DNA of 45,058 nt from an uncultured Bdellovibrionales bacterium (GCA_964630615.1 CAZVVG010000002.1:2059-47116), one strand, 5' to 3'. Positions 4,050 through 45,058 are shown, numbered from the stretch's first letter. Made by a program: numbers and translations. The notes: generated from the letters alone by a model not told the origin.

Positions 4050-6254
4050 GTGATGAAAAATAAAAACAAAGAAAAGGGGGAAAAGAAAGGCGATAACAAA
4101 AAAACATCAAGCGGGAAAAGAAGGCTTGAAAACAAGATTAGAAAAATAATCAAGAGAAGCGGAAACATCGTGCCTTTTAACCCGGGAAAAATTACCAAAG
4201 CGGTGGCCAAAGCTTTTCTCGCGACTGGGGAAGGGAGTTTCCAAGACGCCCAAAGAGTAAGCCGAAAAGCCGTTCAGCTTTTAAATAAGAACTACAAAAA
4301 AGGCTATATTCCCGAAATTGAAGAAATTCAGGATTTGGTGGAAAGAGTCCTGATGGTTTTAGATTTTGAAGAAACGGCCAAGGCCTATATTCTCTATCGA
4401 GAACAACATCGAAAAATTCGGGAAACCGAAGAGTCCTTAAGAGAAGCAGTCAGTCTGGTGGATAAATATATTCAAGAAATTGACTGGAAGGTAAAAGAAA
4501 ATGCTAATATGGCTTATTCCTTGCAAGGACTTAATAATTATGTTTCTTCTATTGTCAGCTCTAATTATTGGATGAATCGGGTTTATTCTAAGGAAATTCG
4601 CGAGGCTCACGAGGGAGGAGATTTCCATATTCATGACCTCCAGCTAGTGGCCGCTTATTGTTGCGGATGGGATTTACAGGATCTTTTGCGTCGAGGTTTT
4701 ACTGGAGTTTTTGGAAAAGTAGCTTGCAAGCCAGCGAAGCATCTAGGTTCCGCTTTGGGACAAATGGTTAACTTCATTTATACTCTTCAAGGTGAAGTGG
4801 CGGGAGCGCAAGCTTTTTCTAATGTGGACACTTTACTCGCCCCCTTTGTCCGTTACGATAAACTCAGCTACGAAAAGGTTAAACAGGAAATTCAATCCTT
4901 TGTTTTTAATATGAACGTTGCGACGCGGGTGGGATTTCAAACTCCTTTTTCCAATATTACCCTAGATGTTACTCCGCCTAAAAACTTAGCCGAGGAAGCT
5001 GTTATAGTTGGGGGCGTCCCCCAAAAAGAAACTTACGGAGATTTTCAGGAAGAAATGAATATGCTGAACCGGGCTTTCGCAGAAGTAATGACTTCCGGCG
5101 ACGCGAATGGAAGGATTTTTACTTTCCCAATTCCTACTTATAACATTGGAAAAAATTTTGACTGGAAAGATAAACGTTACGACCCGATTTGGGAAATGAC
5201 GGCTAAATACGGGATTCCTTATTTTGCAAATTTTATCAATTCCGATATGGACCCTGATGATGCGCGTAGCATGTGTTGCCGCTTACGTCTTGATAACCGC
5301 GAGTTGCATAAAAGAGGCGGCGGTCTGTTTGGCGCCAATCCTCTTACGGGTTCTATTGGAGTGGTAACCATTAACCTGCCTCGCTTGGGATATTTAGCAA
5401 AAAACAAAAAAGATTTTTTTAAGCGACTGGAGGGATTGATGAATTTAGCGAAAGAAAGCTTGGAAACAAAAAGAAAATTAATCGAAAATTTGACGGAAAA
5501 GGGCCTTTATCCTTACACCAAGTTTTATCTGGATTCAATTAAGCTCCGCCGTGACTATTATTGGGGCAACCATTTTTCGACGATTGGCTTGGTGGGGATG
5601 AATGAAGCCCTGTTAAATCTTATTGGAGAAAATATAACAACTCGCGCCGGACAAAGACTAGCCAAAGAAATTTTGGAACAGATGCGAGAAAAAATTGTTG
5701 ACTACCAAAAAGAAACGGGCAACCTCTATAATTTGGAAGCGACTCCGGCGGAAGGCACCTCCTATCGTTTAGCCAGAATAGATAAGGAAAAATATCCTAA
5801 AATTGTTTTTGCCAACGATGAGATGGTCAAAGAAAAAGACGCAGAACCTTATTATACCAACTCTTCCCAATTGCCAGTTAACCATACGGAAGACATTTTT
5901 GAAGCGCTGGAACTGCAAGATGAGCTCCAGACTAAATACACGGGAGGAACCGTGTTGCACGGATTTTTGGGGGAAAGAATTATGGACGTGGAAACTACCA
6001 AAAAACTGGTGAAAAAAATAGCCGAAGATTATGCGCTGCCTTATTTCACACTTACTCCGACTTTCAGTATTTGTCCGGTGCATGGATATATTGCTGGCGA
6101 GCACTACACCTGCCCAAAGTGTGTGATAGAACAGAAAACCGAAGTCTACTCGCGCGTTGTGGGTTATATCCGACCGGTAGAACAATGGAACAAGGGAAAG
6201 CAAGCAGAGTTTTCTCAGCGGAAAGAATTCGTTTTAAAAAGTAAAAAAACTTAA
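4050..6254 (+). CDS. nrdD: Anaerobic (class III) ribonucleoside-triphosphate reductase NrdD
   Basis: K-rich N-terminal tail, an ATP-cone, a large NrdD body, a C-terminal CPVH...CPKC metal site and an RVVGY glycyl-radical loop. The GTG at 4050 is immediately followed by ATG at 4053, and either could be the start. Confidence 0.95.
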   Translation: MMKNKNKEKGEKKGDNKKTSSGKRRLENKIRKIIKRSGNIVPFNPGKITKAVAKAFLATGEGSFQDAQRVSRKAVQLLNKNYKKGYIPEIEEIQDLVERVLMVLDFEETAKAYILYREQHRKIRETEESLREAVSLVDKYIQEIDWKVKENANMAYSLQGLNNYVSSIVSSNYWMNRVYSKEIREAHEGGDFHIHDLQLVAAYCCGWDLQDLLRRGFTGVFGKVACKPAKHLGSALGQMVNFIYTLQGEVAGAQAFSNVDTLLAPFVRYDKLSYEKVKQEIQSFVFNMNVATRVGFQTPFSNITLDVTPPKNLAEEAVIVGGVPQKETYGDFQEEMNMLNRAFAEVMTSGDANGRIFTFPIPTYNIGKNFDWKDKRYDPIWEMTAKYGIPYFANFINSDMDPDDARSMCCRLRLDNRELHKRGGGLFGANPLTGSIGVVTINLPRLGYLAKNKKDFFKRLEGLMNLAKESLETKRKLIENLTEKGLYPYTKFYLDSIKLRRDYYWGNHFSTIGLVGMNEALLNLIGENITTRAGQRLAKEILEQMREKIVDYQKETGNLYNLEATPAEGTSYRLARIDKEKYPKIVFANDEMVKEKDAEPYYTNSSQLPVNHTEDIFEALELQDELQTKYTGGTVLHGFLGERIMDVETTKKLVKKIAEDYALPYFTLTPTFSICPVHGYIAGEHYTCPKCVIEQKTEVYSRVVGYIRPVEQWNKGKQAEFSQRKEFVLKSKKT
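6132..6229 (+). repeat. Direct repeat copy 1 (nrdD 3' end encoding the glycyl-radical loop)
   Basis: 98 nt matching 6425-6522 with 4 mismatches by manual alignment. Confidence 0.9.
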
Positions 6255-6601: not shown

Positions 6602-7309
6602 TGGTTTAAAGCTATGGTTATCGGCGGTTATCAGAAACTTACTCTTATCGATTATCCAGGTAAATTAGCCTCTACGGTTTTTACCGTGGGTTGCAGTTTC
6701 CGTTGTCCCTTTTGCCACAATCCAGAACTTGTTTTGGATTCCGGGCCCAGCGGAAAAAATATTTTGGAAAAAGACTTCTTTGACTTTTTAAAAAAAAGAC
6801 AAAATAAACTGGAAGGAGTTTGTATTACCGGAGGCGAACCCACCATTCAAAAAGATATTGTTGAGTTTGTAAAAAAAATAAAAAACCTGGGATTCTTGGT
6901 AAAACTTGATACTAACGGCACGCGACCGGACGTCTTGAAAAAACTTTTCGATTTGAAATTGCTGGACTTTGTGGCTATGGATATCAAAAATCAATTGAAA
7001 AAATACGATCAAACTACGGGCGTGATCGGGGATAAAGAAAGAATAAAAATCAGCGTTGAATTAATAAAAAATTCCCAGCTTCCCTATGAATTTAGAACCA
7101 CAGTTGTTCCGGGCCTACATCAGGAGAAAGACTTTGAAGAGATTGCCCGTTGGATTGGAGGAGCGAAAAAATATTATTTGCAGGAATATCGAGAAATAAA
7201 AATCCTCAATCCGAAATTAAGAGAAAAAACCAAAGGGAAAAAAATTGATTTGGAAAAAATTCAAAAGAGAATCAAAAAATATTTCGGGCAAGTAGGCATT
7301 AGGAGATAA
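6596..7309 (+). CDS. nrdG: Anaerobic RNR activating protein NrdG (radical SAM)
   Basis: CSFRCPFCHN is a CxxxCxxC radical-SAM motif, and GGEPT is also present. The listed start is TTG at 6596. The in-frame ATG at 6614 (MVIGGYQKLTLIDYPGK) is more likely the true start. Confidence 0.9.
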   Translation: MPWFKAMVIGGYQKLTLIDYPGKLASTVFTVGCSFRCPFCHNPELVLDSGPSGKNILEKDFFDFLKKRQNKLEGVCITGGEPTIQKDIVEFVKKIKNLGFLVKLDTNGTRPDVLKKLFDLKLLDFVAMDIKNQLKKYDQTTGVIGDKERIKISVELIKNSQLPYEFRTTVVPGLHQEKDFEEIARWIGGAKKYYLQEYREIKILNPKLREKTKGKKIDLEKIQKRIKKYFGQVGIRR

Positions 7310-35214: not shown

Positions 35215-36795
35215 ATGTTCGATATTTTAATAAAAAACGCTTTAGTAGCGGACGGGACAGGTAAACCAATTTATTGGGCGGATGTGGGAATCAAAGAAGA
35301 ACGCATTGCCAAAATTGGAGACCTTAGCAATGAAAAAGGGGAAGAAGAAATTGAAGCTAACGAGCGGCTGCTTTGCCCAGGCTTCATAGATGTCAACAAT
35401 CACAGCGATACCTATTGGCGGATTTTTTCCAATCCAGACCTGGAAAGTCTGGTTTCTCAGGGAATTACAACCGTAATCGGCGGCAGTTGCGGCTCTTCTT
35501 TGGCTCCCTTGGCGAATATGGAAGCGATTTATTCTATTCAGAAATGGGGAAATATCAATCAAATCAATATTAACTGGCAAACTCTCAAGGAATTTCTAAA
35601 AACGGTGGAGAAGAAAAAACTGGCGCTTAACTTCGGGACCTTGGTGGGCCAGGGAACTTTGCGCCGGGGAGTGATGAAAGACGCTACGCGGATAGCCAGT
35701 CTGTCGGAATTTAATTCCCTAAAGAGTCTTTTGTCTCAATCCTTGAAAGAAGGGGCCTTGGGCTTGTCTTCAGGCTTGGTTTATGTTCATGAGCGGAAAG
35801 CTTCAATTGGTGAATTGGAAGAGCTCTTGAAAATTGTTAAAAAATATCAAGGCGTGTACGTAACGCACCTTCGCGACGAACGAAAAAATTTATTGGAAGC
35901 CCTGGAGGAAACTGTTGCCCTGGCGGACAAGGAGAAAATAAAATTGCATATTTCTCACTTGAAGGCTATGGAAAAAAGCAATTGGAAAAAGATGGATGAC
36001 GCCCTGGCGCTTGTTGACGAGACGATCAAAAGGGGGGTGGACATAACTTTTGACGTCTATCCTTATGATTTTACTGGTACGGTTCTTTATACCTTGCTTC
36101 CTTCCTGGATTTCCGAAGGAGGAAAAAAGATAATGCTCCAAAGACTCAAAGACCAAGAAATTAGAAAAAAAGTCGTCATTGATTTAAAAAGTTCCAAATT
36201 TGATTGGTCCAAAGTTGAAGTTTCTAAATCTTTCTTAAGCCGGGTTTTGGACAAGAAAAAGATTGCGGACATTGCTCGGGCTCAAGAAAAGAGCCCGGAA
36301 GAGGCGGTGATAGACATTTTGATTGCTTCGGAAGGAACCGTGGTTGTTTTCACGGAAAGCTTAAGCGAGAAAAATTTGGAAAAAGCTCTTGTTCATTCAG
36401 CCGCCATTGTGGCTTCTAACGGTTCAGGGTATAACCTAAAACACGCGGAAAGCGGAGAGAGGGTTCATCCCCGCAGCTTTGGAGCTTTCCCGCGAGTTTT
36501 TTCTCGCTATGTTCGGAAGAAAAAAATTCTCAGTTGGGAAGAGGCGGTAAAGAAAATGACTTCTCTGCCGGCCCAGAAATTTGGCCTGAAAAAAAGAGGC
36601 GAAATCAAAGAAGGCTTTTTTGCTGATCTGGCGCTTATTGATAGAAATAAGGTTGAAGATTTGTCGGACAAGGAAAGTCCTTACCGCTACAGTCAAGGAG
36701 TGGATCTGGTGGTGGTTAATGGTCACTTAACTCTCAAAGAAGGAAAAATCTTGTCTCCTCGCGAAGGAAAAGTCTTAATGCGCGAAGAACCATGA
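35215..36795 (+). CDS. N-acyl-D-amino-acid deacylase (D-aminoacylase) family amidohydrolase, with substituted active-site positions
   Basis: Family-typical N-terminus (DILIKNALVADGTG...ADVGIKEERIAKIGDL...PGFID) plus GGSCG, THLRDE, HISHLK and HPRSFGAFPRV. However, it has NNH where HxH is expected and SNG where SDG is expected. Confidence 0.8.
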   Translation: MFDILIKNALVADGTGKPIYWADVGIKEERIAKIGDLSNEKGEEEIEANERLLCPGFIDVNNHSDTYWRIFSNPDLESLVSQGITTVIGGSCGSSLAPLANMEAIYSIQKWGNINQININWQTLKEFLKTVEKKKLALNFGTLVGQGTLRRGVMKDATRIASLSEFNSLKSLLSQSLKEGALGLSSGLVYVHERKASIGELEELLKIVKKYQGVYVTHLRDERKNLLEALEETVALADKEKIKLHISHLKAMEKSNWKKMDDALALVDETIKRGVDITFDVYPYDFTGTVLYTLLPSWISEGGKKIMLQRLKDQEIRKKVVIDLKSSKFDWSKVEVSKSFLSRVLDKKKIADIARAQEKSPEEAVIDILIASEGTVVVFTESLSEKNLEKALVHSAAIVASNGSGYNLKHAESGERVHPRSFGAFPRVFSRYVRKKKILSWEEAVKKMTSLPAQKFGLKKRGEIKEGFFADLALIDRNKVEDLSDKESPYRYSQGVDLVVVNGHLTLKEGKILSPREGKVLMREEP

Positions 36796-38201
36796 AAATT
36801 GAAGAATTACGAGGAAAAAAAATTACCGTGATGGGTCTGGGACTCTTGGGAGGTGGCGTAGGCAATATCCGGTTTCTGCACGCAGCCGGAGCTAAAATCT
36901 TGGTAACCGATTTGAAATCAAGGGAAGAACTCTCTGAATCTCTCAAGGCGCTTAAGGATCTGAAAGGAATCGAATATGTTTTAGGCCAACACCGAGTGGA
37001 AGATTTTGGAAAAGCCGATCTAATCCTCAAAACCCCCTTTGCTCAGTGGGAGGAAAATAAGTATGTAAAAATAGCGCTGGATAAAAAAATTCCGGTAGAA
37101 ATGGACTCCAGTCTTTTTTTTAAGCTTTGTAAAAATAAAATTATCGGGGTGACTGGGACTAAGGGCAAGACCACGACCGCCTCTCTGATCTTTGAGATTC
37201 TTAAAAAAGCCGGAAAAAAACCGGTTCCCGTTGGGGTGGGGCAAGTTTCTGTTTTGGATAAGTTGGGAAAGTTAGAGAAAGAGAGCTGGGTGGTTTTCGA
37301 ACTTTCCAGCTGGAGGTTAAGTGGCTTAAGACGAAACCAGCTCAGTCCGCAAATCGCCGTTTTGACCAATCTTTATCCCGATCACCTAAATTATTACAAA
37401 AAAATGGAGGACTACATTCTTGATAAAAAGGGAATTTTTGCTTGTCAAAAGCCGGGTGATTTTTGTATTATTAATTGGGACGACGAGACTTTGAAGCAGT
37501 GGGAAGCGGAAATTAACTCTCAAATCATAAAAATTTCTCAGCAAAAAATAGAACGGGGCAAGGCGGTTTGTATTGAAGACGGAATAATTCTTCTCAAAGA
37601 CGGAATTGATGAAAGAAAAATCCTGGAAATTGAAAAAATTAAACTCAAGGGAAGACACAATCTTTCTAATATCTTGGCCGCTATTGGAGCTTCTTTCGCG
37701 GCCGGAGTGAGTCTGGAAAAAATTCGAGAAGCCGTTTTGGAACTTCGAACACTGCCGGCCCATCGCCTGGAATTGGTTCGGGAATTAAACGGGGTGAAAT
37801 ATTACAATGATACCGCTTCTACTACTCCGGAAAGCACGGTTTCCGGCATTAATTCTTTTGAAGAGCCGATTATTTTAATTTGCGGCGGGGCGGACAAAAA
37901 CCTGGATATGTCGCTTTTGACTGAAACCATCTGTCGTCAGGTCAAGGGAGCGGTTTTTCTGGAAGGCAAGGCTACCGAAAAAATTCTTTCTTTTATGGGT
38001 AAATTTTTCGGGCAAGGAGTGGATGAAAAAAAATTTCCGGTCGTCGGCTCGGTGGAAAAAGCCCTAGAATTAGCCTGTGGTTCGGCGGAAAAGGGAGACG
38101 TGGTTCTTTTTTCTCCGGGTGCCGCCAGTTTTGGGCTTTTTGCCAATGAATTTGAAAGGGGAAACAAATTTAAAGAAGCGGTGATGAAATTGAAATCCTA
38201 G
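36792..38201 (+). CDS. murD: UDP-N-acetylmuramoyl-L-alanine--D-glutamate ligase
   Basis: GLGLLGGGVG Rossmann motif and GVTGTKGKTTT P-loop. The ATG overlaps the stop of the upstream gene (ATGA). Confidence 0.93.
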   Translation: MKIEELRGKKITVMGLGLLGGGVGNIRFLHAAGAKILVTDLKSREELSESLKALKDLKGIEYVLGQHRVEDFGKADLILKTPFAQWEENKYVKIALDKKIPVEMDSSLFFKLCKNKIIGVTGTKGKTTTASLIFEILKKAGKKPVPVGVGQVSVLDKLGKLEKESWVVFELSSWRLSGLRRNQLSPQIAVLTNLYPDHLNYYKKMEDYILDKKGIFACQKPGDFCIINWDDETLKQWEAEINSQIIKISQQKIERGKAVCIEDGIILLKDGIDERKILEIEKIKLKGRHNLSNILAAIGASFAAGVSLEKIREAVLELRTLPAHRLELVRELNGVKYYNDTASTTPESTVSGINSFEEPIILICGGADKNLDMSLLTETICRQVKGAVFLEGKATEKILSFMGKFFGQGVDEKKFPVVGSVEKALELACGSAEKGDVVLFSPGAASFGLFANEFERGNKFKEAVMKLKS

Positions 38202-38241
38202 ACAGGGATTTTTGTTTTTGCTAAAATAAACCACTGTTTTT

Positions 38242-38314
38242 GGGCCTGTAGCTTAGTTGGTAGAGCACCTCGTTTGCAACGAGGGGGTCAGCGGTTCAAG
38301 TCCGCTCAGGTCCA
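38242..38314 (+). tRNA. tRNA-Ala (anticodon UGC)
   Basis: Manual cloverleaf. The acceptor gggcctg pairs with caggtcc and includes the G3:U70 alanine identity pair. The anticodon arm is cctcg-tttgcaa-cgagg (TGC) and the T-arm is agcgg-ttcaagt-ccgct. No CCA is encoded. Confidence 0.93.
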
Positions 38315-38320
38315 CTCGTA

Positions 38321-38356
38321 CTTGACATATTCCTTGACATATTCCTTGACAAATTC
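38321..38356 (+). repeat. 12-mer array A: 3 contiguous units (cttgacatattc x2, cttgacaaattc), 6 nt after the tRNA-Ala 3' end
   Basis: Read directly. Confidence 0.9.
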
Positions 38357-38412
38357 AGGTTCGGTCTTGGTTTCTAGGGCTGATTTATTCTTCCCAGTCC
38401 ATATCCCACATT

Positions 38413-38440
38413 TTGACGAATCAAATGTTTAAGATATAAT
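38413..38440 (+). promoter_or_regulatory. Candidate promoter for the membrane protein gene
   Basis: TTGACG, 16 nt, TATAAT. Confidence 0.4.
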
Positions 38441-38509
38441 ATACTAGCTGAAATAAATAAATTCTTTTCAAAAAGGTACCGAAAAATTATTTGGGTAAAG
38501 TAATTTTTT

Positions 38510-39328
38510 TTGAAAAATATTAAAAAAAATAAAAAAATCGACCTCCTGATACTTATATTCATTCCGATACTGACTGCTTTTGTGTTGCTGTTTTATCGAG
38601 AAAACTTTCTGATCTCCACAATTTTATTTTTTGGAACCCCGTCTTTATATTTGGCGGTCAGACACAAAAAAGCCCTAAAAAAGACTTTTATTTTCTCCCT
38701 GCTTTTTTCCGTGCCACTCACATTCATATTTGATTATCTTATAGCCAAAGATAAAGGCTGGCATATTGTAAGTTCAATTTTACCTTTTAGAATTTTTGGT
38801 ATTGTTGCCTTCGAGCAATTTATTTGGGCGTTTTTGTGGGTTTTCTATATTGTAATTTTCTATGAGTATTTTTTAGATAAGCAAGAAAAACGGTCGATTT
38901 TTTCATTTTTATTTACCAAGAGCGAAACTATAACTAGGCCGATGGAATATTTTGCGCTCGTTCTGTTTACGTTATTATTATTTTTTACTTTTTTTGCCTT
39001 TTTTTGCCCAACATATTTGAAAATCGATTATGCCTATTTAGTGCTCGGTACAATATTCGGAATAATTCCGCTGTCAATTTTCCTTTTCAAATTCCCAAAC
39101 TTTTCTGTCAGATTTTTAAAAGCCACCTTTTATTTCTTTTTCCTTGCTTTAATCATTGAATATGTTGGGTTGAAATTAAATCACTGGATTTTCCCCGGAA
39201 GCAATTTTATTGGAGTTGAAAATTTTTTTGGGTTCATGATTCCTTATGAAGAAATTATGATTTATTTCGTTTTATCAACCCCCATTGTTCTGTCATATTA
39301 TGAATTTTTTGACGACGACAGGCGGTAA
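38510..39328 (+). CDS. Polytopic membrane protein, possibly lycopene-cyclase-domain family (tentative)
   Basis: TTG start and about 7-8 TM segments. Two internally similar halves carry VAFEQFIW and IPYEEIMIY, which resemble the PxEE-type motif of CrtYc/Yd-like domains. The family call is weak. Confidence 0.7.
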   Translation: MKNIKKNKKIDLLILIFIPILTAFVLLFYRENFLISTILFFGTPSLYLAVRHKKALKKTFIFSLLFSVPLTFIFDYLIAKDKGWHIVSSILPFRIFGIVAFEQFIWAFLWVFYIVIFYEYFLDKQEKRSIFSFLFTKSETITRPMEYFALVLFTLLLFFTFFAFFCPTYLKIDYAYLVLGTIFGIIPLSIFLFKFPNFSVRFLKATFYFFFLALIIEYVGLKLNHWIFPGSNFIGVENFFGFMIPYEEIMIYFVLSTPIVLSYYEFFDDDRR

Positions 39329-39477
39329 GGATAATTTTGCCTATAAATAATCTCGCTATCACTCAGAACCCATTTGCATCAGCTAACACGGCTTAAAAGG
39401 AAAAACTCGTTATAAAAAAGACTAACCGTCGCAAGAGGGGAAAGCAGAGAATAATAAAAAAGGCATAGGTTTCTGCT

Positions 39478-40221
39478 CTATTTTCCGGGTGAGGGCTTTG
39501 CATCTGGATAAAAAAAATAATAATCCCGATAACTGGTCAAGAAATTTTTTAGGTCTTTTTTAATTTTTGCAGCCGCTTGAGTGTTTAGGGGTTGGTTTTT
39601 GTATCTCCTTCGGAAATTAACCGCCCGTTCCACTGTGTCAGCAAATTTGAAATTTGGAAAATGTTGTCTGATTTTTTGAGGTAGTGCCTCTTTTTTAATT
39701 AGGATGCCCTGACTAATCAGCATGGCGTCGGCCATGTTGATGATGTAGCCGACTTGGTTCTTTGGTTTTCTCTTGAAAATATTCCATTGGGGATCCATAT
39801 TGGTTGCGTGCAAATAATTCATTCTTAATTCCGTTTCAAGATCCCGTTTCAATATCTCCCGCACATTAATATTTTTATGAATCTGTTGGCCAAAGAGCAG
39901 TTTGCTTTTTTTGGCTAACTTAATCAAATCTAAATTACCAATGAAACGATAACTCTGGTTTTTTCTGAGCCGTTTGAGAAACTCCGGATAGGACCAGAAA
40001 TGATATTTTATTTCTAAGTGCTTTAATGGAACGGCCTGCTGAAAGTCTATTTTAACTGCTCCCTTTTCCTTTAAAATTATCAAGAGGTCGTAATCACTCC
40101 ATCCGGCAAGATTTTCACCAGACCCAAAGCTACCAGTAGCGTAAAGAGAGACAATATTATTTTTTAGATATTTTTTAGCAATTCTAACAATGCCGGCTTC
40201 AATTTTTTTTATTTCCATCAA
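39478..40221 (-). CDS. Pol-beta-superfamily nucleotidyltransferase with a helical C-terminal domain (ANT/KNTase-like or MNT-HEPN-like fusion)
   Basis: The NTase signature YATGSFGSGENLAGWSDYDLLII fits G[SG]x9-13DxD. The C-terminal helical region contains an Rx4H string (RMNYLH). Confidence 0.8.
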   Translation of the reverse strand: MMEIKKIEAGIVRIAKKYLKNNIVSLYATGSFGSGENLAGWSDYDLLIILKEKGAVKIDFQQAVPLKHLEIKYHFWSYPEFLKRLRKNQSYRFIGNLDLIKLAKKSKLLFGQQIHKNINVREILKRDLETELRMNYLHATNMDPQWNIFKRKPKNQVGYIINMADAMLISQGILIKKEALPQKIRQHFPNFKFADTVERAVNFRRRYKNQPLNTQAAAKIKKDLKNFLTSYRDYYFFYPDAKPSPGK

Positions 40222-40443
40222 TTTTAAAGTGTGACAAATTTATTAATCTTTAGGCAAGCTAAATTTATTTTTTCAGGACTCGGAACCTTTTGGGACAATC
40301 CGGGACTTGAGCGAAATTACAAGGGCCTTCTTTGATTTTATCAAGAAAAAGCATCAACTCCAAATATGGGGGAAGAGTTAATATGCCTGAAAAGGAGTGC
40401 TAAGACTAGGTCTGTTTTTTCTTACCTCTTTGATTTTCTTTCC

Positions 40444-40523
40444 GGTTCCAACCAATTCCCCTGAGGGGTACGCGCTCTTGACAAATCCCTTGACATATTC
40501 ACCTCGTCTTACTTGACAAATCT
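40444..40523 (+). repeat. Module B: GGTTCCAACC motif, cccctgagggg hairpin, then 12-mer array B (cttgacaaatcc, cttgacatattc, 11-nt spacer, cttgacaaatct)
   Basis: Read directly. 40489-40524 matches 44452-44487 with 4 mismatches in 36 nt. Confidence 0.85.
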
Positions 40524-40534
40524 CTCTAAAACTA

Positions 40535-40562
40535 CAGAACTTTCACCGAGTTCTGTTTTTTT
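40535..40562 (+). terminator. Hairpin plus T-run (cagaact ttcaccg agttctg TTTTTTT) closing module B
   Basis: 7-bp perfect stem and 7 T. The stem is identical to the hairpin at 44511-44531. Confidence 0.6.
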
Positions 40563-40613
40563 GCCGGCTAACATCCCGAAACATACCCCCCAAGCTTTTC
40601 CCTAGTCTCCAAT

Positions 40614-40642
40614 TTGGAAAACCCAGCTTTTCAAGGTAAAAT
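40614..40642 (+). promoter_or_regulatory. Candidate promoter of the giant gene
   Basis: TTGGAA, 17 nt, TAAAAT, about 65 nt upstream of the ATG. Confidence 0.35.
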
Positions 40643-40706
40643 AGAGTCAATAAGCTCCAGCCGATAAATCATCAGAATAATTAAATTTTTTAATTAAAAC
40701 ACAACT

Positions 40707-43700
40707 ATGACAGAACAATTTAAGAAATTTGATTTTTCCAAACCCGAAGACCAAAAAGAGTTTAACGCCCTGGAGGCTCAAAAAAAGGCAGAAGTAAGAA
40801 AAGGAGCCGAAGAAGAAGCGGCCAAAGAAGGAATGCTAAAGCGTTTATCCGAAGGTAGTATTTATTCTTCCATACGAATCAAAGATGAATTCAAGCTGCC
40901 GGAAGACTTTGTCCAATCAGCTGAAGTCCAATCAGCAGCCAAAGAAGGAATGCAAAAGTGTTTATCCCGAGGCTATTCTGATTATGCCATACGAATCAAA
41001 GACGAATTCAAGCTGCCGGAAGACTTTGTCCAATCAGCGGTCAAAGAAGGAATGCAAAAGTGTTTATCCCGAGGCTATCTTAGCGATGCCATACGAATCA
41101 AAGACGAATTCAGGCTGCCGGAAGACTTTGTCCAGTTAACCGAAGTCCTCTCAGCGGCCAAAGAAGGAATGCAAAAGCTTTTATCCCAAGGCCATTCTGA
41201 TTATGCCATAGAAATCAAGGACCACTTCAAGTTGCCGGAAGACTTTGTCCAATCAGCTGAAGTCCAATCAGCAGCCAAAGAAGGAATGCTAAAGTGTTTT
41301 TCCCGAGGCTATCTTAGTGATGCTATAAAAATCAAAAACCACTTCAAGCTGCCGGAAGACTTTGTCCAGTCAACCGAAGTCCAATCAGCGGCCAAAGAAG
41401 AAATGCTAGAGCGTTTATCCAAAGGCTATATTAGCGATGCCATAGAAATCAAGGACCACTTCAAGCTGCCGGAAGACTTTGTCAAGCCAGCAGCCGAAGA
41501 AGGAATGCTAAAGCGTTTATCCGAAGGCTATCTTAGCGATGCCATACAAATCAAGGACCACTTCAAACTGCCGGAAGACTTTTTCCAGTCAGTCGTAAAA
41601 GAAGAAATACTAAAGCGTTTATCCCGAGGCGATATTGGTTCTGCCATACGAATCAAAGACGAATTCAAGCCGCCGGAAGACTTTGTCCAATCAGCTGAAG
41701 TCCAATCAACCGCCAAAGAAGTAATGCAAAAGTGTTTATCCCGAGGCGATATTGATTATTTCATAAAAATAAAAGACCACTTCAAGCTGCCGGAAGACTT
41801 TGTCCAGTCATCGGCCAAAGAAGGAATGCTAGATCGTTTATCCCAAGGCTCTATTAATTCCGCCATAGAAATCAAAGACCGATTCAATATCAACATACCT
41901 CAGAGCATTCTATTTCAAGAACTTCCCAAACTTCAAGAATTGGTAAACGAAATAGAGAATCTGGCGCCAGGGTTTAATTTCCAAGTGCAAAAGTCCAGCG
42001 ACTTAGCGATAGAGCTATGTCGTTTTCTAAATGATCCGGATCAAATGATAGACAACGTCCGAGAAAATCCCTTCCTGATCGATGCGCTGACTCGCAACTC
42101 CCGTTTTTCCGCCCGTCTCTTGGTTAAATATCAGGAATTTGACACTCTTTCCCAAGAGAATATCAAGAAACTTTATTCCGCCAAAGAGAAAATCCTGGCC
42201 GCTCATCTGGAAATAGATCCAGAATCCCTGGAATTCCGTCAATTAATTCAGGAGGAATTAAGAGAATACAAAAACAATCCGGAAATAGTCGAGGAAATCA
42301 AAGAGCAGGAGATCAATCTGGAAGAATGGCTCAATTATTCAGAAACCAGCTATTTCAATCTGTCCACCGGCGGAAGTGAAGTCGCTTTCTCGGAAAAAAT
42401 CCATACACCGATCGAGAGGATCAAGGAGACAATCGACAGCTACGCCTATACGCTAAAATCAGTCTTAAAAGAATATCGGCCGGAAATGGAAAAGTTTGAA
42501 ATTATTCTGGAAGACGCCAAGTCGATAGCCGACCAAATAGCCAAAATGGAAGCGGCTTTGAATCAGGCCCGAACTGAGGGCAATGAGAAAAAAGCCCAAG
42601 GCATTGAAAGAGGATTGGCTTCGCAAAAAGAAAAGCTCAACAACTTGAAAAAAGGCTTTCTCTGGGACAAGCTTATGGGTGAAATCGCCGCTTTTCAGCG
42701 ATTGAAAAACGATTGCTTTGACGCGCAAAACAGATTGCTGGAAGCGGAAAACAAATTGGACGAAGCTTTGTCTGGAAAAACACCGTCCGGGAAAATGATC
42801 CAGGATATCAAACAGAAGATAACCCAATCCAAAGAAGAGCTGCGCAATAAATTCAGCGATCTGGAAAAAAGAATCGAGGATTTCAAGACCGAACTGCCGG
42901 GATTGATCTCACCTTGCCTGAGCGCTATCCGAACGGAGGCGCTGCTTCAGGAAATCAATCAAAAAATGGCCGAACAATTCAATCACTTTGATACGGATCG
43001 GACCGATTTAGCTAATCTTTTTTCCGAGCGCGGCGACAAAGAAACCGCGCAACTGGAATCCCGCCCGATGAGCATCTTCGTTTGGGCCAGAAACCCGGAC
43101 ATCGATCTTTATCAAGGCAATTACTCGCCCTGCTGCATTTGCATAGACAGCGCGCATATGGGTGCCGAGTCAACAATCGCCGACTACAATACCGATCTGG
43201 GTGTGCAAATTGTAAACATCTGGGATGAAACCAAAAATGAACCGGTAACCGCCGCCTGGTGCTGGTTAGGGGAGAACGAAAAAGGCGAAACCGCGCTGGT
43301 AGTAGACAATATTGAGTCCAATACGCTATATAGCTTAAACTTTTCCGAGCAATTAACCAAAGAGCTATTCGACTATATCAAAGAATATGCTCAAAAAATT
43401 GGCGCGGATAAAGTAGTTTTAGGCAAAGATAATAATGATTTGCCAACCGGCAGTGAATTGGCCAGGATGCCGGAAGATGGAAATAGCTATGAAAAAATCG
43501 GCGGCAGCAATCGCGCTGACGGCTATTTTTTGGAAGCAGAGGGGAGAAGTGTTAAATCAGTTTGGGAACGAACAAAAAAGCGAACAGAGAAAAAACCCAA
43601 AACGGAAAAACGAATCAAAAAAATTGTCTTTAACAATTTGACAACGACGATAATCAAGGAGAATAACTTAAGCCAGATTTTACAAGCGGAAAGAAAAATC

Positions 43701-44150
43701 TATGCTGGCACGGGATTAATTAGCGGGCAAATCTTAACTGAAGATATTAGGAACAATAACGGTTTTGAATTCTCCTTGGCCATGACTGGCTTAAGGCCTG
43801 GAAAGAAATCGGCAGAAACTGTCGCCTATATCGTAGCCGTGGAAGACGAAACCGACGAAGGCGATCCGTCAATCTACCTTGAAGACATCGCGGTTTTGCC
43901 GGAAGCGCAAAGACAGGGAATCGGCTGGGAAATGATGAAAGAGTTGATTAATAAATTGAAAGCCAAAGCGCAAAGAGAAAACAAGCCGGTCTTACTGGAT
44001 ATGCATTTGCGGGAAACCTCCCAGAATTTTATGGCCAGACACAAAGAAGACCTAGAAAGATTGGGAGTAAAATTAATTGAAGAAGCCCTGGTAGCCGATT
44101 ACTATGAAGAAGGCGAAGATTCACTTTATCAGGTTTACGAAGTGAGATAA
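40707..44150 (+). CDS. 1147-aa multidomain protein: 10 tandem 34/39-aa repeats, a coiled-coil region, a Cys-containing alpha/beta domain, and a C-terminal GNAT N-acetyltransferase
   Basis: No signal peptide or TM segment. The repeats span about aa 38-393. The region aa 400-780 is a heptad-rich helical region. Residues about 786-945 (YSPCCICID...ALVVDNIE...LFDYIKEYAQKIGADKVVLG) look GNAT-fold-like but lack a CoA P-loop. Residues about 972-1147 form a clear GNAT domain (IYLEDIAVLPEAQRQGIGWEMMKELI). Confidence 0.9.
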   Translation: MTEQFKKFDFSKPEDQKEFNALEAQKKAEVRKGAEEEAAKEGMLKRLSEGSIYSSIRIKDEFKLPEDFVQSAEVQSAAKEGMQKCLSRGYSDYAIRIKDEFKLPEDFVQSAVKEGMQKCLSRGYLSDAIRIKDEFRLPEDFVQLTEVLSAAKEGMQKLLSQGHSDYAIEIKDHFKLPEDFVQSAEVQSAAKEGMLKCFSRGYLSDAIKIKNHFKLPEDFVQSTEVQSAAKEEMLERLSKGYISDAIEIKDHFKLPEDFVKPAAEEGMLKRLSEGYLSDAIQIKDHFKLPEDFFQSVVKEEILKRLSRGDIGSAIRIKDEFKPPEDFVQSAEVQSTAKEVMQKCLSRGDIDYFIKIKDHFKLPEDFVQSSAKEGMLDRLSQGSINSAIEIKDRFNINIPQSILFQELPKLQELVNEIENLAPGFNFQVQKSSDLAIELCRFLNDPDQMIDNVRENPFLIDALTRNSRFSARLLVKYQEFDTLSQENIKKLYSAKEKILAAHLEIDPESLEFRQLIQEELREYKNNPEIVEEIKEQEINLEEWLNYSETSYFNLSTGGSEVAFSEKIHTPIERIKETIDSYAYTLKSVLKEYRPEMEKFEIILEDAKSIADQIAKMEAALNQARTEGNEKKAQGIERGLASQKEKLNNLKKGFLWDKLMGEIAAFQRLKNDCFDAQNRLLEAENKLDEALSGKTPSGKMIQDIKQKITQSKEELRNKFSDLEKRIEDFKTELPGLISPCLSAIRTEALLQEINQKMAEQFNHFDTDRTDLANLFSERGDKETAQLESRPMSIFVWARNPDIDLYQGNYSPCCICIDSAHMGAESTIADYNTDLGVQIVNIWDETKNEPVTAAWCWLGENEKGETALVVDNIESNTLYSLNFSEQLTKELFDYIKEYAQKIGADKVVLGKDNNDLPTGSELARMPEDGNSYEKIGGSNRADGYFLEAEGRSVKSVWERTKKRTEKKPKTEKRIKKIVFNNLTTTIIKENNLSQILQAERKIYAGTGLISGQILTEDIRNNNGFEFSLAMTGLRPGKKSAETVAYIVAVEDETDEGDPSIYLEDIAVLPEAQRQGIGWEMMKELINKLKAKAQRENKPVLLDMHLRETSQNFMARHKEDLERLGVKLIEEALVADYYEEGEDSLYQVYEVR
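40818..41885 (+). repeat. Intragenic tandem repeat, 10 units of 102 or 117 nt
   Basis: Units begin at aa 38, 77, 111, 150, 189, 228, 262, 296, 335 and 369. The consensus is AAKEGMLKRLSxGxxxxAIxIKDxFKLPEDFVQS(AEVQS). Long stretches are identical at nucleotide level between units. Confidence 0.95.
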
Positions 44151-44218
44151 TCAAATACGTCCCAGAAAATTCCAAGGAGAAAGTAAAAGTCTTTAGGAAA
44201 AATAGAAATCTTTAGAAA

Positions 44219-44244
44219 GCAAGGACAAAACCTCCTTGCTTTTT
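44219..44244 (+). terminator. Rho-independent terminator of the giant gene
   Basis: gcaagga caaaacc tccttgc followed by ttttt. Confidence 0.7.
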
Positions 44245-44262
44245 CTCTTTCCAAAACCCCCC

Positions 44263-44291
44263 GGTTCCAACCGATGAACGTCAGGTACTCC
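44263..44291 (+). repeat. Extra copy of the GGTTCCAACCGATGAA...AGGT motif
   Basis: The first 16 nt are identical to 44401-44416 and then diverge. A shorter GGTTCCAA lies at 44349-44356. Confidence 0.7.
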
Positions 44292-44400
44292 TTAGCGGAT
44301 TTTTGAAAAATTAAAGGTGTTTCAGGTTTCAAACAAAACTAAAAAGCTGGTTCCAATACCTGTCTCAACTTGTCCCATTTCTTCAATTCTGACACGATTT

Positions 44401-44510
44401 GGTTCCAACCGATGAAGCCGAGGTCCACTTGACATATTCCTTGACAAACCCCTTGACATATTCACCTCATCTTACTTGAGAAATTCCTTGACCTATCTCT
44501 TGACAAACCC
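44401..44510 (+). repeat. Module C: GGTTCCAACC motif, AGGTCCAC (identical to the tRNA-Ala 3' acceptor end), then 12-mer array C (6 units with one 11-nt spacer)
   Basis: The units are cttgacatattc, cttgacaaaccc, cttgacatattc, [acctcatctta], cttgagaaattc, cttgacctatct, cttgacaaaccc. Confidence 0.85.
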
Positions 44511-44539
44511 CAGAACTCCAACCGAGTTCTGTTTTTTTT
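44511..44539 (+). terminator. Hairpin plus T-run (cagaact ccaaccg agttctg TTTTTTTT) closing module C
   Basis: Same stem as 40535-40555 and 8 T. Confidence 0.6.
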
Positions 44540-44597
44540 ATTCTCCGCTTACCAACATCTTTTAACTATCAGATATTTATGATATATTTACCTCAGA

Positions 44598-45058
44598 ATG
44601 CCAATCAAAATCGTCGACAAAAAACGCTTCTGTCTTTTTATCTCCCTGGTTATCAGCTTGGTAGTTTTTTTGGTCTTCGGAGTGTATTGGTTCTATGAAA
44701 ACTCCAAACTCAAACCTCTCAATTCCCAGGCAACTACCAGTGAGTTCTTAAACTCCCTCCAAGTTTCCAAAGAAAGCTACTTCCAGAAAGAACCCCTTAC
44801 CACCAAAGAACTCAAGCTTCTTAAAGAAAAACAACCGGAGCTCTTTTCTTCTTCCTCCCAAAGAAGAAGCGAAGCGATCATTAAAGAACACCAGACCCTC
44901 CTTGAATCCATCTCTAAGAATAAACTCGGTCTTCCTAAGGACCAAAACCAGCTCAAAGCCCTAAGTTTCCTCAAGAAACTCTCCCTTAATCCGTATCCCT
45001 TCCCATCTTCCAAAAACTCCCAATCTCTCTTAAACAAGCTCAAAGCCCAAAACTCCCT
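44598..45058 (+). CDS. Hypothetical membrane-anchored protein, 3'-truncated by the window edge (not in the supplied ORF track)
   Basis: Manual translation from ATG 44598 is open to the end of the window: MPIKIVDKKRFCLFISLVISLVVFLVFGVYWFYENSKLKPLNSQ... It has an N-terminal TM anchor. Codon choice is C-ending (ctc, tcc, ccc), unlike the core genes. Confidence 0.5.
   Translation, partial: MPIKIVDKKRFCLFISLVISLVVFLVFGVYWFYENSKLKPLNSQATTSEFLNSLQVSKESYFQKEPLTTKELKLLKEKQPELFSSSSQRRSEAIIKEHQTLLESISKNKLGLPKDQNQLKALSFLKKLSLNPYPFPSSKNSQSLLNKLKAQNS

Follow-up and report, generated by a model that had tools for sequence, protein, structure and literature searches.

Tandem CTTGACA repeats in junction modules of a probable insertion at a tRNA-Ala 3′ end

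Three repeat arrays downstream of tRNA-Ala

We analyzed a 45,058-nt stretch of DNA (hereafter the window, with all coordinates counted from its first nucleotide) deposited for an uncultured Bdellovibrionales bacterium (GCA_964630615.1 CAZVVG010000002.1:2059-47116). The flanking genes in the window include a ribosomal-protein cluster, glycolytic genes and murD. Based on its murD homologues, the nearest of which share 70-73% amino acid (aa) identity, the window falls within Patescibacteria, near Moranbacteria-type genomes. Next to murD is a tRNA-Ala gene, and 3′ of this gene the window contains, in order, a tandem array of 12-nt units (array A), genes for a 272-aa protein and, on the opposite strand, a 246-aa protein, a second array (B), a giant gene for a 1147-aa protein, a decayed junction copy (C0), a third array (C) and an open reading frame (ORF). 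We found that the three arrays belong to junction modules of DNA that behaves as an insert at the tRNA-Ala gene.

The tRNA-Ala gene, which had been called in the initial annotation of this DNA, was recovered by both ARAGORN and Rfam (tRNA model, 70.8 bits), and it is the single tRNA of the window. The gene and the arrays are located as follows.

38242-38315, + strand: tRNA-Ala(TGC), CCA not encoded
38321-38356, + strand: array A, three contiguous units (two copies of CTTGACATATTC followed by CTTGACAAATTC) at the left junction, on its island side
40477-40500 and 40512-40523, + strand: array B, units B1-B2 and B3, with an 11-nt spacer (ACCTCGTCTTA) between
44428-44463 and 44475-44510, + strand: array C, units C1-C3 and C4-C6, with an 11-nt spacer (ACCTCATCTTA) between

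The pattern CTTGACANANNC matched the window exactly 10 times, compared with 0.29 matches expected, and none of 100 shuffled sequences reached 10. Nine of the 10 exact matches are within arrays A, B and C, all on the + strand. The initial annotation had reported twelve units in three arrays with strict 12-nt phasing. The arrays do lie where it placed them, but just 9 of the 12 match the pattern exactly, with one mismatch in each of B3 and C4 and two in C5. The phasing, moreover, is broken by the 11-nt spacers in B and C, which result in a 23-nt step that is off the 12-nt phase by one base. Including its spacer, array C with its six units spans 83 nt. A period of 12 was also reported for arrays A and C by Tandem Repeats Finder. 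The first seven nucleotides of the unit, CTTGACA, are intact in 10 of the 12 units, while positions 8-12 are variable.

The tenth exact match (CTTGACAAAGTC, 41475-41486, - strand) is inside a coding repeat of the giant gene (…EDFVK…). Across 40817-41887, ten coding repeats of 102/117 nt each include a minus-strand near-copy of the unit, YTGGACAAAGTC. These near-copies are probably a coincidence arising from duplicated codons for EDFVQ.

Each unit motif includes a perfect -35 hexamer, TTGACA, and CTTGACA is the extended -35 consensus, so that the arrays could be taken for clustered sigma-70 promoters in which each TTGACA serves as a -35 box. However, no -10-like hexamer occurs 16-18 nt downstream of any unit, a promoter scan found none inside the arrays, in agreement with the initial annotation, and each array runs straight into a terminator. 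At the sequence level, this extremely improbable reading is effectively refuted.

One module is repeated at the cassette boundaries

Each array forms part of a longer module, of about 100-130 bp. In this module a box, GGTTCCAACC, is followed after ~15 nt by a core that resembles the 3′ end of tRNA-Ala, then by the 12-nt CTTGACA units and finally by a terminator hairpin. Repeat finding and alignment placed the module at each cassette boundary (A, B, C0 and C), where cassette 1 comprises the genes for the 272-aa and 246-aa proteins and cassette 2 the giant gene. The parts of the modules beyond the arrays are listed here.

38308-38316, + strand: left copy of the core sequence AGGTCCACT, at the acceptor 3′ end of the tRNA; left breakpoint of a 6.1-kb segment
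38361-38383, + strand: hairpin after array A, then TTTATTCTTC, a weaker T-run (-10.6 kcal/mol, z -2.0)
40442-40562, + strand: module B, with box at 40444-40453, core GAGGGGTACGCGCT, units B1-B3 and hairpin
40534-40556, + strand: hairpin after array B, then T7 (-9.7 kcal/mol, z -4.5)
44261-44320, + strand: module C0, a decayed copy with box, CCGGTTCCAACCGATGAACGTCAGGTACTCC/CAGGTAC and degenerate units (from alignment)
44399-44429, + strand: right end of the segment, with box at 44401-44410 and right core copy AGGTCCACT at 44421-44429
44511-44539, + strand: hairpin after array C, CAGAACTC/GAGTTCTG, then T8 (-10.6 kcal/mol, z -7.0)

Comparison of modules B and C revealed a 45-nt stretch at 93% identity, which extends over two units and the spacer into the next unit, and a 34-nt stretch at 85% identity that includes the same stem, CAGAACT/AGTTCTG, followed by T7-8. 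The sequence CCGGTTCCAACCRAT occurs upstream of B and of C, and once more at 44261. The three copies of the box in the window are all on the + strand and all within modules B, C0 and C. Between the box and the units of module C lies GAGGTCCAC, a match to the acceptor end of tRNA-Ala (CAGGTCCAC). In B, the core is a degenerate version, and its length equals that of the junction between the tRNA and array A. In A and C, the units start 0-5 nt past the core. On the + strand of the window, the 9-bp AGGTCCACT occurs at 38308 and 44421 and nowhere else, and the sequences flanking these two copies are similar, if imperfectly, on both sides.

The hairpins and T-runs that the initial annotation described after B and C are in agreement with the folding energies and z-scores. 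Array A likewise has a hairpin 3′ of it, which had been missed, and thus one layout is common to all three arrays. As the locus is arranged in the window, the tRNA-Ala transcript probably terminates at the hairpin after A. In the predicted fold, the arrays themselves are unpaired and the hairpin is the sole stable element. The terminators after B and C end no gene because they are copies of the tRNA trailer and terminator. We conclude that arrays A, B and C are parts of one duplicated module and not independent features. This matters for annotation whatever the units do, as the orphan terminators and the arrays are a single duplicated module.

No tRNA-like fold, tmRNA or pseudo-tRNA was detected upstream of B and C by ARAGORN or by Rfam (E<=10), and no known RNA family in Rfam matched at the arrays. 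We considered that the repeats could be transposon ends or integron attC sites and rejected this upon inspection, as all copies are direct and there is no inverted-repeat architecture.

An alternative junction at the tRNA 3′ end

A metagenome contig from another sequencing run (Logan contig L002) has 0 mismatches to window positions 36698-38316, which include murD and the whole tRNA. Past 38316, its sequence (…GCTCAGGTCCA) is joined to CTTGACATATTCCTTGACAAAC, without the CTCGTA linker and without array A. The last 31 nt of L002 match 44419-44449 at 29 of 31 positions, and both mismatches are the two tRNA-specific bases; the best match to the region of array A has 8 mismatches. In L002, the tRNA-Ala end is joined straight to the start of array C, exactly at AGGTCCACT, and the contig stops 22 nt inside the array. 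The two breakpoint contexts have no sequence in common other than AGGTCCACT (38308-38316 and 44421-44429). Given that A and C share no 30-mer, a de Bruijn assembly with k=31 could not have created this join, and reads must span it. The L002 junction and the presence of AGGTCCACT at both breakpoints thus indicate that the ~6.1-kb block from 38317 to 44429 behaves like DNA inserted at the tRNA gene's 3′ end. In the L002 arrangement, the positions of the tRNA's trailer and terminator correspond to array C and its hairpin.

A contig from a further run (L164) covers 38262-40516 without mismatch and independently confirms the order of array A, cassette 1 and array B. This contig stops exactly where B3 (CTTGAC) and C4 (CTTGAG) diverge. 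A deletion by recombination between B and C would have the junction …ACCTCGTCTTACTTGA|GAAATTCC…, and the end of L164 would fit such a B x C recombinant in that sample, a contig end being weak evidence. The ends of contigs L001, L164 and L170 inside the tRNA were not used, as they are due to tRNA k-mers common to related species.

The tRNA-Ala gene of relatives

Gene order up to murD is kept in the relatives L138, L141-143 and L171. In these, murD is followed by tRNA-Ala, by tRNA-Ile and/or tRNA-Arg, and then by secE-nusG-rplK-rplA (the L171 contig ends in the gene after secE). None of these murD-tRNA-Ala loci has a CTTGACA array.

In another relative (L168/L169, murD 72% identical), a large serine recombinase of 519 aa abuts the 3′ end of the orthologous tRNA-Ala. 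Its gene in L168 (5339-6909), which as called overlaps the tRNA 3′ end, encodes Resolvase and Zn_ribbon_recom domains. The presence of a serine recombinase at the same tRNA in a relative implies that tRNA-Ala is an insertion hotspot in this clade. Mobile DNA and its insertion sites have barely been described in Patescibacteria (candidate phyla radiation, CPR), and the tRNA-Ala next to murD is a recurrent insertion point, with a serine-recombinase element in one lineage and a recombinase-less stack of cassettes in another.

We also noted interrupted-looking tRNA-like sequences between tRNA-Ile and secE in L141 (11680-12040), L142 and L143. These comprise a tRNA-Ile-like gene with a ~50-nt insert and a tRNA-Arg-like gene split around tRNA-Arg(CCG). 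They could be intron-containing or nested tRNA genes.

The arrays as proposed att-type junction repeats

The reading that we favor, with a rough probability of 0.45, is that the arrays are att-type junction repeats whose units are putative binding sites for recombination proteins. Site-specific recombination at the tRNA 3′ end would have brought in the 6.1-kb segment, perhaps in the form of two cassettes that accreted; B would be a decayed internal junction, and B and C0 would both be relics of stepwise accretion. Array C and its hairpin would then be the original trailer and terminator of tRNA-Ala, and array A with its hairpin would have come in with the inserted DNA as a substitute trailer. 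The head-to-tail units may serve as cooperative sites for a recombination protein encoded elsewhere in the genome, for which an integrase arm-binding domain or a winged-helix protein of the Xis type (recombination directionality factor, RDF) is a candidate. The element would in that case be integrase-less and mobilized in trans, or decayed. Its excision would give a circular (attP) junction reading …GCCGAGGTCCACTCGTACTTGACATATTCC… / …GATGAAGCCGAGGTCCACTCGTACTTGACATATTCC…. As L002 keeps the whole tRNA 3′ end, the crossover would have to lie within AGGTCCACT; the box GGTTCCAACC was ruled out as the crossover site for the same reason.

This reading draws on two kinds of known system. As in genomic islands at tRNA 3′ ends, which include tandem accretions and cis-mobilizable elements (CIMEs), the insertion is exactly at the tRNA 3′ end (38316/38317), a direct repeat of the tRNA end is present at both boundaries, there is a probable presence/absence polymorphism between populations, the accessory cargo is of atypical composition, and internal junction copies suggest accretion. 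Unlike such islands, the segment is just 6.1 kb long, has no recombinase gene and is bounded by a perfect repeat of just 9 bp, and its junctions carry 12-nt tandem arrays and a terminator copy, neither of which is known from islands of this kind. At most, the segment can be filed as an integrase-less islet (trans-mobilized or decayed) at a tRNA gene, with an unusual junction architecture.

The second parallel is with integrase and directionality-factor sites. Arm-binding domains of integrases recognize short direct repeats spaced at about one helical turn by the crossover core, with five arm sites in attP of ICEMlSym, and the winged-helix directionality factors Xis, Cox and RdfS, as well as the related BldC, bind head to tail in a cooperative, filament-like manner (PMC11963761). 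The arrays resemble such sites in having 3-6 short direct repeats, head to tail, that adjoin the core. They differ in that their period is 12 bp rather than ~10-11 and that the motif of the other arm, GGTTCCAACC, is of different sequence; also, an array is present on the chromosomal side as well.

Several findings weigh against the arrays being sites of this kind. No integrase, Xis or other recombinase gene was found in the 6.1 kb or the window, based on Pfam searches of 17 window proteins (7 around the arrays and 10 at the left end) and inspection of ORF lists. Array C is on the chromosomal (attB) side, where L002 shows tRNA attachment, whereas classical arm sites occur in attP only. The initial annotation had proposed iterated DNA-binding sites such as recombinase arm sites. 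Its proposal fits the arrays beside the 9-bp repeat, the probable 6.1-kb polymorphism and the module at each boundary, but not these first two findings. In addition, the core of B is degenerate, the 12-bp period exceeds one helical turn, and the unit matches the extended -35 consensus almost perfectly, which the att reading does not explain. Serine integrases do not require arm sites, and the sole recombinase found in a relative at this tRNA is of that type. What L002 establishes is a different junction at the tRNA end rather than an empty site, and a different island could follow it. Finally, no homologous module was found elsewhere in the searches described below, so that the binding-site role is without comparative support. 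If the units are sites for recombination proteins, they represent a new att architecture and provide a way to recognize such islets in other CPR genomes.

Iterons of plasmids and phages, another option in the initial annotation, are direct protein-binding repeats, as the units putatively are. Iterons are typically 17-22 bp long and adjoin a rep gene and an AT-rich origin. The units here are 12 bp, with no rep gene or origin.

Array A lies between the tRNA 3′ end and a terminator in the window, and array C does so in L002; array B does not. This position raises the alternative of a tRNA 3′ trailer RNA, that is, a G-poor and unstructured RNA of ~100-120 nt with 3-6 CUUGACA motifs and a terminator hairpin, freed by tRNA processing. 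Such an RNA might sequester a protein or a small RNA; alternatively, its regularly spaced pyrimidine-C sites might be bound by a ring protein, for example Rho. An array plus hairpin is found 3′ of the tRNA in both the window and the L002 arrangements, and all arrays are on the transcribed strand and, except for the hairpin, predicted to be unpaired. That the inserted DNA supplies its own array and hairpin could reflect selection for such a trailer, but common descent of the att regions explains the shared arrays equally well. All relatives examined lack arrays and have other tRNAs directly next to tRNA-Ala, and thus the trailer is not a conserved requirement. Further, B has neither an upstream tRNA nor a predicted + strand promoter, Rfam gave no match and no complementary partner was identified. 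On balance, we regard a functional trailer RNA as unlikely.

In 3′ETS-leuZ of E. coli, the 3′ external transcribed spacer of a tRNA acts as an RNA sponge with one base-pairing site for small RNAs. Like this spacer, the array is located between a tRNA 3′ end and an intrinsic terminator and could be freed by tRNA processing; unlike it, the array RNA is putative and would present tandem motifs, not one pairing site for small RNAs. CsrB-type sponges have many GGA motifs in the hairpin loops of a dedicated small-RNA gene. The initial annotation had invoked this logic for the arrays, and it does not apply, as the units lack GGA, are predicted to be unpaired and not in loops, and match nothing in Rfam.

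Cargo genes and the regions upstream of them

The genes of the two cassettes and their surroundings are as follows.

38510-39328, + strand: cassette 1, 272-aa polytopic membrane protein of no confident family, with a promoter-like site at 38413-38440
39478-40218, - strand: cassette 1, 246-aa nucleotidyltransferase (PF01909)
40707-44150, + strand: cassette 2, 1147-aa protein comprising ten repeats of 34/39 aa, a coiled coil and, at the C terminus, a GNAT acetyltransferase domain
44214-44244, + strand: the giant gene's own terminator (-14.2 kcal/mol, z -4.0)
44598-45058, + strand: ORF downstream of array C, with an N-terminal transmembrane segment, running off the window

Each array is upstream of a + strand gene, at 88-184 nt ahead of its start codon. 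The arrays could be operators or enhancers, bound by a DNA-binding regulator or by region 4 of sigma-70, that control these downstream genes (for the 272-aa membrane protein, for the giant GNAT protein, and the ORF at 44598), with head-to-tail binding as for OmpR/PhoB on pho boxes. Pho boxes and other OmpR/PhoB operators have a 6-7-bp core and a 4-6-bp spacer, repeated head to tail at least three times, and the core can replace the -35 element. The units are similar in their repeated conserved core and variable spacer and in the resemblance of the core to a -35 element. The match of the unit core to the extended -35 consensus and the invariant cores of arrays upstream of dnaG in Limnocylindria (see below) also speak for operators. 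However, Pho-type operators overlap the promoter, whereas here a terminator hairpin lies between each array and the downstream promoter, and the ~60-135 nt from the arrays to the predicted -35 boxes downstream of them is a long distance for an activator site. No gene for a regulator lies close by, and the AGGTCCACT repeat and the L002 junction are left unexplained. Operator or enhancer arrays are in our view distinctly unlikely. If the units were to act via the tRNA trailer or RNA polymerase, they would constitute a new type of regulatory repeat.

The giant gene has a terminator of its own, as the initial annotation stated and folding of 44214-44244 confirmed. Homologues of the giant protein, at 42-74% identity, come from genomes that carry the labels Falkowbacteria, Buchananbacteria, Parcubacteria, Taylorbacteria and Paceibacterota. 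Of their gene contexts, the three inspected are mutually unrelated, and murD tops out at 73% in the closest relatives. Judging from these sequence comparisons, the scattered homologues are consistent with horizontal transfer of the giant gene. Its ten repeats matched no nucleic-acid-binding family in Pfam, NCBIfam or PDB sequences, and no CTTGACA array is beside its homologues in three CPR genomes (L165, L166 and L167). The idea that the giant protein is a TALE- or PUF-like binder of the units, in line with the suggestion in the initial annotation that the 10-repeat protein is the cognate binder, is thus not supported.

In L166 (Buchananbacteria), the giant-gene homologue is flanked by intergenic direct repeats of 56-87 nt with 73-77% identity (2430-2780, 5680-5900 and 6935-7021). 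Their sequence is unlike that of the window module, and the cassette-like layout is similar.

The ORF at 44598 had no homologue, not even the query itself, in an index of 5.8 billion proteins; in the source record it may be cut at the contig end. No relatives of the cargo genes were detected in viral contigs.

By tetranucleotide distance, 37.5-45 kb is the part of the window that deviates most from the remainder (0.021-0.031, compared with 0.011-0.021), with part of this signal inflated by the internal repeats of the giant gene. The lowest GC content of the window is at 38-40 kb. The cumulative GC skew climbs from 1 to ~40 kb, with a peak near 39-40 kb, and is then flat or falling; the genes left of tRNA-Ala are all on the + strand. 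The turn near 40 kb could be due to foreign DNA or to a nearby replication terminus. A dif/Xer site was considered for this peak and rejected, as there is no inverted-arm structure.

CTTGACA arrays in other genomes

We searched 185,579 species genomes for three phased CTTGACA units and detected at least 119 loci, mostly perfect tandem copies. Among the matches listed there was no homologous module, only unrelated 12-nt tandem repeats, tandem -35 boxes and coding repeats. Two units of the CTTGACAWAYYC type occurred at 16 loci in JGI metagenomes, of which 0 were homologous. In viral contigs, the scan for the units found 20 loci, most of which are coding sequences or -35 boxes duplicated at phage promoters, with no homologous module, and neither the predicted excised (attP) junction GAGGTCCACTCGTACTTGACA nor the pattern of box, core and units was found in viral contigs. 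The C region had no blastn match in phage and plasmid collections. Within the reach of these exact-pattern scans, and for the species genomes among the matches listed, the module is specific to this lineage.

That 12-nt CTTGACA tandem repeats are common in bacteria, with at least 119 unrelated loci, is what would be expected if the arrays were a neutral minisatellite: replication slippage would have generated it within an intergenic module, and the module would later have been duplicated together with the cassettes. The numbers of units differ among the module copies (3, 3 and 6) and the array is restricted to this lineage, which also fits. Recent slippage, however, gives identical units, whereas here the core is whole in 10 of 12 units with positions 8-12 variable, as for a constrained site, and the core coincides with a strong protein-recognition sequence. 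A purely neutral origin thus seems rather improbable to us.

Arrays of the same type as those in the window were found in ten genomes of Limnocylindria (Chloroflexota; loci L007, L022, L031, L039, L088, L090, L105, L106, L109 and L121, also L136). Four CTTGACA cores are located upstream of dnaG, 3-4 of them at 12-nt phasing, in units such as CTTGACAAATCC and CTTGACAAACCC. The cores are invariant in the 10 species, while the flanks diverge. The arrays are followed by a GC-rich hairpin with compensatory changes, and a divergent anti-sigma-like gene is upstream. No Rfam family matched these dnaG arrays. The invariant cores imply that such arrays can be under selection, which keeps a more general function in play. 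Possibly, 12-nt-phased arrays of extended -35 elements (CTTGACA-A-A-Y-Y-C) with a hairpin are a recurrent, undescribed functional element and not a local accident, an idea to which we give little credence. A common mechanism, if any, could be titration or positioning of sigma-70/RNA polymerase, binding by a widespread winged-helix protein, or a 12-nt RNA signal. If the element were indeed recurrent, the att regions of the island would have kept the arrays because the tRNA gene needs them.

Two to three tandem CTTGACA boxes were also observed upstream of Fic-family genes and at phage early regions (L008, L032, L097, L103 and L120, and viral contigs L145, L149 and L155). These appear to be duplicated -35 elements, and several of the last boxes are at promoter distance from a -10-like hexamer.

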